The notes beneath the pieces were generated by a model. It worked only from the letters and a program-made list of their open reading frames with translations, was not told where the DNA came from and made no database searches. A program made the translations under genes and the position numbers. A DNA stretch of 13,936 nucleotides, from the UHGV virus genome UHGV-0300571; one strand, given 5' to 3'. Source of the stretch: a virus. Shown piece after piece: positions 7,181 to 7,462 of this stretch (its first letter is position 1; the number at the start of each line of letters is the position of its first letter).

Positions 7181-7462
7181 TCAATTATCCCTTTTTTTCG
7201 GGTAGTTCCTGAACATCTCACCGCCAGGTTTCTGTAAGCCCATCCCGGTATGTGTGCGGTTTATGGCCTCTTTCAGTATTCCGAAATTATCCGGTATGAC
7301 TGGTTGGCGCGCTGCCTTACGGATACATTCCGCGCGACGCTTTGCCACCTGTTCGCGCTCCTTGTCAGTGCTCACCAGCCACATAACATCAGCCCAACGT
7401 GCCGCCGCTCTCCGGTACAGCCCTTTAGCCTCCAGTTCTTCCGCTTTGCTGTCTTTAATCAT
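7181..7462 (-). CDS. PerC/Pch-like small transcriptional regulator (tentative)
   Basis: ATG at 7460-7462 with GAGG upstream. The motif ...ELEAKGLYRRAAARWADVM...AKRRAEC... matches my recollection of the PerC-family signature (GLWRRAA.RW..VM). Not verified by any search. Confidence 0.5.
   Translation of the reverse strand: MIKDSKAEELEAKGLYRRAAARWADVMWLVSTDKEREQVAKRRAECIRKAARQPVIPDNFGILKEAINRTHTGMGLQKPGGEMFRNYPKKRDN

Follow-up and report, generated by a model that had tools for sequence, protein, structure and literature searches.

A PerC/Pch-family regulator gene in a variable cassette slot of a predicted capsid-forming phage satellite of Escherichia coli

The DNA analysed here, referred to below as the window, is the whole stretch of 13,936 nucleotides from the virus genome UHGV-0300571. 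On its minus strand, an open reading frame at 7181..7462 runs from an ATG (7462-7460) to a TGA (7183-7181, stop codon included) and encodes a perC/pchE-like protein of 93 residues, with a computed mass of 10.7 kDa and a pI of 10.0; we refer to this gene as perC. Direct reading of the sequence places a Shine-Dalgarno motif (GAGG, 7469..7472, minus strand) 6 nt 5' of the ATG, and no such motif was found for the in-frame GTG at 7474, which would extend the product by four residues. No family support was found for the plus-strand reading frames that overlap perC (7250-7759 and 7254-7481). Pairwise dN/dS values against the window allele range from 0.18 to 0.41, and the median over 43 pairs is 0.17. 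These values, well below 1, indicate that the perC frame is the selected coding frame and that it is under purifying selection. A run of seven A (7192-7198, minus strand) lies four codons ahead of the stop codon, and its length varies among database alleles, which end either as a 93-residue protein (...PKKRDN, P0002) or as a 98-residue protein (...PKKKGIIDNGC, P0001).

The product matches the Pfam family PerC (PF06069) with an E-value of 2.6e-35 and 121 bits, the gathering cutoff being 22.6, and the alignment is end to end, with residues 1-89 lying on positions 1-89 of a model of 90. PHROG 994 (E=2.3e-42) and a custom HMM built from 46 homologues (E=1.3e-44) also match the protein, whereas PHROGs labelled 'transcriptional activator' match only its N-terminal ~53 residues. 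The residues invariant in the 46-sequence alignment (L10, E11, G14, Y16, R17, R18, A19, R22, W23 and C46) are all present, as are the columns invariant in an 11-sequence alignment with PerC, Pch and PchE. The N-terminal signature of PerC and PchA-E, A-E-x-L-E-x-K-G-x-Y-R-R-A-A-x-R-W ... R ... C, is also present, and the agreement as a whole is far better than chance would produce. Score, signature, small size (~90-105 residues), single-domain and predicted helical architecture, and location on a horizontally acquired element all agree with the PerC/Pch family, and 7181-7462 is confirmed as a genuine gene for a small regulator of this family. A sequence-only reading had placed a PerC-like regulator gene here from the family signature, and had proposed a Pfam or HMM search for PerC as the check. 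Its coordinates are exactly those of the minus-strand reading frame, the search returned the full-length PF06069 match rather than the absence of any PerC-family hit, and the proposed family was the right one: identity to PerC, Pch and PchE is 45-60% along the full length of the protein.

It is scarcely credible that perC is a decaying or non-functional remnant whose family match reflects descent only. Truncated alleles do occur elsewhere (54-residue 'PchE' entries, P0102, and partial matches), and two versions of the C-terminus result from the homopolymer close to the 3' end. However, perC of the window is a complete and undamaged reading frame that has a good Shine-Dalgarno motif and a dN/dS well below 1, and identical or near-identical alleles are present in many genomes: the window allele is found at ≥95% identity in 31 of 5426 complete E. 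coli genomes, and the two closest clusters comprise 135 and 65 member sequences.

The genes that surround perC, all on the minus strand, are those of a capsid-forming phage-inducible chromosomal island (cf-PICI), in the same layout as Sp7/EcCIEDL933: int, alpA, DUF4222, RepA helicase, ssb, perC, PHROG 1957 and a capsid-packaging block. The tyrosine integrase gene (12523..13752) matches Pfam Arm-DNA-bind_3 and Phage_integrase, and alpA (11964..12152), from the family of PICI master regulators, matches Phage_AlpA with E=2.7e-18. A DUF4222/RgdR-like gene for 99 residues (9765..10064) lies directly upstream of the gene for a RepA-type helicase of the replication module (8353..9768; Pfam AAA_25, E=6e-44; RefSeq 'helicase RepA family protein'), itself upstream of ssb (7478..7903; Pfam SSB, E=2.3e-16; TIGR00621 above cutoff), the upstream neighbour of perC. 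Downstream of perC, the PHROG 1957 gene (6887..7135) has a GGAGG Shine-Dalgarno motif and encodes a conserved protein of 82 residues; it is found in every close relative, with or without perC. The capsid and packaging block (619-6612), with matches to capsid, protease, portal, connector, HNH, TerS and TerL, starts with the gene for an HK97-type major capsid protein (5467..6612; Pfam Phage_capsid, E=1e-60). Profile searches of the window found no tail or lysis genes. The presence of the capsid-packaging block indicates that the island is a capsid-forming satellite, and on its gene content we assign the window to the cf-PICIs of E. coli, so that the earlier description of perC as carried by a satellite holds. 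Elements of this class are induced by a helper phage, build small capsids of their own and take only tails from the helper.

A copy of the window in strain TUM9757 (locus L001) is 96.8% identical and is inserted in yifB/comM beside ilvL. In this strain yifB/comM is split by the island, and a Fic-family gene is found between the left yifB fragment and the left end of the window (L001 156-1520, 1858-3000 and 16858-17031). Imperfect direct repeats of 69 nt, 77% identical, are located near both ends of the island (L001 1585-1653 and 16707-16775) and are likely to be att-flanking arm sites. Two identical 23-nt direct repeats, CTCACTTTTGCTCCTCACTTTTT, 168 nt apart at 8164-8186 and 8332-8354 (L001 11164 and 11332), lie in AT-rich DNA just 3' of the gene for the RepA helicase and are candidate origin iterons. 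A reading frame for 394 residues at 10727-11911 (minus strand), taken from the mechanical list of open reading frames, is almost certainly not a gene; in its place RefSeq has an Icd-like gene, a YlcI/YnfO gene on the plus strand and a small hypothetical gene.

The ATG of perC lies 15 nt beyond the stop codon of ssb, a gap from which the two genes are probably co-transcribed. No sigma-70-like site was found on the perC strand between 7463 and 9577, in a consensus scan that performed at chance level for the whole window. Indeed, the promoter and terminator consensus scans were both at chance level, so that statements on promoters carry little weight and the operon is assigned by inference. With a ribosome-binding site of its own and no recognisable promoter, perC is probably transcribed with the leftward alpA-to-ssb operon, and we infer from the gene order that it would be the penultimate gene of this early operon. 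A low basal read-through of perC in the integrated state is possible. A GC-rich hairpin followed by a U-run, resembling an intrinsic terminator, is located directly 3' of the PHROG 1957 gene (6847..6880, minus strand). It was found by reading and RNA folding, the consensus scan having missed it, and its fold has a dG of -18.8 kcal/mol against -11.3 for shuffled sequences (z=-2.75). The stem is kept by a compensatory change in one locus of our survey (L037), and Sp7 and another locus (L038) have a different hairpin and T-run at the same place. This terminator-like element is likely to end the transcript on which perC lies. On the opposite strand, a promoter-like site antisense to perC (7362-7389, plus strand) is followed, ~160 nt on, by a terminator-like hairpin inside ssb (7547-7579, plus strand). 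Both consensus matches occur at chance frequency, and a short antisense RNA across the perC start is probably nothing.

The interval from the ssb stop codon to the start codon of the PHROG 1957 gene (7136..7477, minus strand), in which perC lies, behaves as a cassette slot. We surveyed 61 IMG/VR loci encoding relatives of the window capsid protein, 34 of which include ssb as well as the PHROG 1957 gene. Among these 34, the slot is empty in six (gap of ~21 nt; 6 distinct sequences), contains PerC in 12 (gap of ~346 nt; 10 distinct sequences) and contains a ProQ/FinO-family gene in 16 (gap of ~561-573 nt; 11 distinct sequences). The product of this alternative cassette matches Pfam ProQ with E=8.8e-25, and in some islands ProQ and PerC occur in tandem. 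The junctions are exact, similarity stopping at the ssb stop codon and returning at the ribosome-binding site of the next gene. Across all three slot classes the protease, portal, HNH and terminase genes are ~95-100% identical to those of the window, and the major capsid is either 97-100% or ~69-70% identical, both alleles being found with every state of the slot. Since relatives with near-identical modules carry PerC, ProQ or nothing at this place, perC appears as a dispensable and exchangeable cargo, and not as a late activator. From this comparison, the satellite itself would need perC neither for capsid formation nor for packaging. Activation of the late operon was rejected as the main reading of perC, because close relatives without the gene exist.

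The PerC family is narrow, with only 340 clusters at 50% identity, among 1.84 billion representatives, matching at E<=1e-3 in a profile search. In E. coli, perC-like DNA is present in 1426 of the 5426 complete genomes (26%), always annotated as PerC family, and the exact window allele occurs in an ETEC-named pig isolate and in other strains of varied origin. Full-length homologues were found in at least 12 genera, the genera and species concerned including Salmonella, Enterobacter, Erwinia, Escherichia ruysiae and E. albertii, Atlantibacter, Kluyvera, Shimwellia, Chimaeribacter, Lonsdalea and Pantoea. Apart from a few exceptions, they belong to arrays of the type int - alpA - (AntA) - (DUF4222) - primase - (SSB and/or ProQ) - PerC, where the PerC gene comes immediately after the replication module, in the same orientation, and is often separated from the gene before it by only 0-15 nt. 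The islands that contain these distant homologues are PICI-like and have no capsid genes. Salmonella, Enterobacter, Erwinia, Pantoea, Lonsdalea and Kluyvera are not known to carry the LEE. True phages, among them temperate ones such as SfII, SfIV, SfV, Stx2 phages and Fels-1, share only the N-terminal ~50 residues with PerC, sometimes fused into larger proteins, and the plasmid copies of PerC are more distant from the window protein.

The gene is already annotated, as RefSeq entry WP_000588637.1, 'PerC family transcriptional regulator', from strain TUM9757, is 100% identical to the window protein. PerC alleles on E. coli PICIs have also been stated by Fillol-Salom 2018 (PMC6092414), by Flockhart 2012 (PMC3378721) and in the EcCIMP1 paper (PMC11773190), and PerC on PICIs is stated in an Enterobacter mobilome paper (PMC13612085). 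A PICI-borne perC is thus a correct but ordinary finding, to which the modularity of the PerC/ProQ/empty slot and the conserved position of PICI-borne homologues across genera are modest additions.

The region before the capsid gene contains three 10-bp-periodic TTGTTC repeats, a -35/-10-like pair (6762-6789) and a conserved leader hairpin. The triple repeat (6807-6832, minus strand) stands just upstream of this promoter-like site of the capsid operon, and is found again between int and alpA (12442-12467, plus strand) and upstream of int, near the island end (13816-13841, minus strand), that is, three copies in the window where 200 shuffles give an expectation of 0. The same arrangement exists in Sakai Sp7 (L004 2688-2713 and 8946-8971). 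The repeats are candidate binding sites for Int (arm type) or AlpA, which may couple expression of the late operon to AlpA or Int. The whole region, TTGTTC repeat included, is the same in relatives with or without PerC. The repeat being near int and alpA and present in PerC-less relatives, the late operon looks controlled in an Int- or AlpA-type manner and not by PerC. The leader hairpin, GTGGCACTCAGACGTGAGCCGCCAC (6732-6756, minus strand), lies between the promoter-like site and the capsid start, and its conservation extends to cf-PICIs with a capsid only ~69% identical (L060 and L074). An Rfam search of the window gave no RNA family, and none for this hairpin, which may regulate the late operon as an RNA or DNA element.

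These data bear on whether the perC product regulates the life cycle of the satellite, for example by activating or counter-silencing the capsid-packaging operon ~570 bp downstream, or through replication or the interaction with the helper. The position of the gene, tightly packed in the operon and immediately upstream of the terminator and the late-promoter region, is what such a role would predict, and so is the fact that homologues from at least 12 genera directly follow, with few exceptions, the PICI replication module in the same orientation, some of these genera having no known LEE. We nevertheless regard this role as unlikely: close relatives with near-identical modules have no perC (six loci) or have ProQ instead (16 loci), the more divergent cf-PICIs gave no match to the PerC HMM, and the pre-capsid region is unchanged where PerC is missing, its TTGTTC repeat pointing to control of the Int/AlpA type.

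Among the named homologues, the window protein is closest to Sakai PchE, with 60% identity over 88 residues. It is 51% identical to the 104-residue group-1 Pch of EDL933 (over 87 residues), 51% identical to EcCIMP1_025 and 45% identical to EPEC PerC from pMAR2 (over 87 residues). A neighbour-joining tree, computed without support values, places the window protein in one clade with PchE and the alleles of E. albertii and E. ruysiae, and this clade is sister to PerC and group-1 Pch; the Enterobacter/Kluyvera/Salmonella and the Erwinia/Pantoea alleles form separate branches. Closest sequence and an OI-51-like genomic position both correspond to group 3 (PchE-type), and the comparison places perC in the Escherichia sub-branch that contains PchE. 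PchE (ECs_1588) of E. coli O157:H7 Sakai is encoded on the prophage-like element Sp7, also named OI-51 or CP-933C and equal to the published cf-PICI EcCIEDL933, in the order ssb (ECs1587) - pchE - small ORF - major capsid (PMC3378721), as in the window; the two proteins are also of the same size class (90 versus 93 residues) and share a neighbour-joining clade. However, the gene that follows pchE is ECs1589 and the one that follows perC is the PHROG 1957 gene, and the backbones differ, EcCIEDL933 having a P4-alpha-type primase and lying between roxA and phoQ, whereas the window has a RepA helicase and is found in yifB. Moreover, the acidic PchE (pI 5.7) contrasts with the window protein, which is basic (pI 10.0) like PerC and Pch, and this makes it risky to transfer the phenotypes of PchE.

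The other named proteins resemble the window protein in part. PerC of EPEC, the founder of PF06069, agrees with it in length, motif and predicted helical layout. It is encoded on the EAF plasmid pMAR2 in the perABC operon, together with the AraC-type PerA, whereas the satellite-borne window gene has no AraC partner in its vicinity; PerC is also a proven activator of LEE1/ler, with a wider regulon (PMC5293775). PchA, PchB and PchC, from lambdoid prophages of EHEC, are basic and small like the window protein, but they are 104 residues long with a C-terminal extension that it does not have, and their genes are morons beside prophage lysis genes, whereas the window gene is in a satellite replication operon. 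EcCIMP1_025, like the window protein, has 93 residues and is PICI-borne, but it belongs to the Enterobacter/Kluyvera-type branch and to a classical, non-capsid PICI, and it represses LEE1 in C. rodentium (PMC11773190).

We consider it improbable that the perC product is a strict virulence activator of the PerC/PchABC type, switching on ler/LEE1 and type III secretion in LEE-positive hosts. Its 45-51% full-length identity to proven activators, the retention of all invariant motif residues and a basic pI that it shares with PerC and Pch, unlike PchE, would suit such a function, and some PICI alleles of PerC activate the LEE according to Fillol-Salom 2018 (PMC6092414). On the other hand, its positional orthologue PchE is cited, in passages of PMC6265319 and PMC11773190, as not activating LEE1, and another PICI allele, EcCIMP1_025, represses LEE1 (PMC11773190). 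The exact allele is also carried by the ETEC-named pig isolate and varied strains, and perC-like DNA is in 26% of complete E. coli genomes. Given the behaviour reported for PchE and for the repressing PICI allele, the term 'activator of virulence loci', which the sequence-only reading had taken from pathogenic E. coli, does not transfer to the window allele. Furthermore, the interchangeability of the slot and the conserved position of homologues in genera with no known LEE make 'LEE activator' too narrow a description for satellite alleles.

The AlphaFold2 model of the perC product is all-helical, with a mean pLDDT of 81.5 that reaches ~90 over residues ~11-50. Predicted helices span residues 5-13, 16-29 and 33-50, which form a three-helix N-domain, then 57-73 and a short fifth helix at 79-84. 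No relative was found in the PDB by sequence. According to the model, the N-terminal three-helix domain (~5-50) appears related to the ANR family, with a TPR-like geometry, and no classical DNA-binding fold is apparent. Against the NCBIfam ANR model (NF033650), 45 of the 46 PerC-branch homologues match below threshold, with a best E-value of 5.6e-8, and the window protein itself obtains 12.6 bits (E=0.094) for a cutoff of 32 bits. This supports a distant homology between the N-domain and ANR proteins, and not membership of the ANR family; a kinship of PerC and ANR was suspected by the EcCIMP1 authors (PMC11773190). The N-terminal ~50 residues are aligned over all 54 positions of the model of the ANR family, which includes Aar of EAEC, and both kinds of protein are predicted to have three helices in this part and are ~10 kDa or less (PMC4983702). 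PerC proteins differ by an extra C-terminal region of ~40 residues. ANR proteins bind AraC-type regulators and H-NS (PMC4983702, PMC5570504). A kinship with PerC was also considered for Rpp, a protein that redirects packaging in PICIs; it was rejected on size and on solved structures, Rpp having 144-153 residues and a solved TerS-like DNA-binding domain (PMC6739421), whereas PerC has no PDB relative.

By analogy with these homologues, the perC product probably acts in trans as a modulator of host nucleoid-silencing or regulator complexes. The gene would be transcribed with the leftward alpA-to-ssb operon and translated from its own ribosome-binding site. The protein would then remodel H-NS/StpA/Hha silencing complexes, as Pch does, or bind AraC-type regulators or H-NS, as ANR proteins do, and the outcome would be an altered transcription of horizontally acquired genes and of surface, adhesion, motility or virulence genes. 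The best-known mechanism is that of Pch, whose activation of LEE1 consists only in lifting the silencing by H-NS/StpA/Hha, with a reduced H-NS occupancy in vivo and in vitro, and Fukui et al. observed no co-precipitation of Pch and H-NS (PMC4764244). The regulon of PerC is wide and includes nitrate respiration genes, the fim switch and ler (PMC5293775). Overexpression of PchE lowers csgD/curli and biofilm and raises flagella, and its expression is at a low basal level that decreases on SOS induction (PMC6265319, PMC7369912). Since the characterised homologues act in opposite ways, as activator, as neutral protein (PchE on LEE1, in the cited passages of PMC6265319 and PMC11773190) or as repressor (EcCIMP1_025), the sign and the targets of the effect are not predictable for the window allele. 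The satellite nevertheless carries a member of a regulator family able to re-wire host transcription, with virulence, curli/biofilm, flagella and fimbriae among the targets of homologues. With such a regulator aboard, spread of the island could change the behaviour of the host besides its gene content.

The sequence-only reading had suggested an effect on host gene regulation or an involvement in helper-phage sensing. The first part agrees with the published data on homologues, and the second found no support. A role of perC in sensing or interfering with the helper phage (anti-phage defence, interference or sensing of induction) is very improbable. PICI accessory slots often hold anti-phage or interference functions, and perC does lie in a variable accessory slot of the satellite; homologues of the PerC N-domain in temperate phages also make cross-talk conceivable. 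Yet PADLOC gave no defence-system match for perC and its three small neighbours, no support for such a role was found in the literature, induction of PICIs is attributed to AlpA (PMC6092414), and the slot is empty in close relatives that are still predicted to be complete satellites.

A wider reading, which we put forward as doubtful though possible, is that the PerC family is native to the PICI satellites of Enterobacterales and had an ancestral role between satellite, host and helper. This role could be, for example, the counter-silencing of H-NS on incoming xenogeneic DNA, or a re-programming of the host cell surface while the satellite is transferred or afterwards. In that case, plasmids and prophages would have co-opted the family later, giving the virulence regulators PerC and PchABC, and cf-PICIs would have in the PerC / ProQ-FinO / empty slot a site dedicated to 'host-reprogramming cargo'.

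Two further observations concern other parts of the island. The DUF4222 reading frame (9765-10064) is 66% identical to ECs_1581 of Sp7, which is the published T3SS regulator RgdR (PMC3378721); together with perC, the island thus encodes two small proteins whose families are associated with control of the LEE. A second variable slot separates the PHROG 1957 gene from the capsid gene (6613-6886). It measures 277 nt in the window and, in relatives (loci L038, L041, L045, L063, L068 and L075), ~808-833 nt in several and 1622 nt in others; the extra DNA of L038 appears, from its sequence, to encode a reverse-strand ORF.
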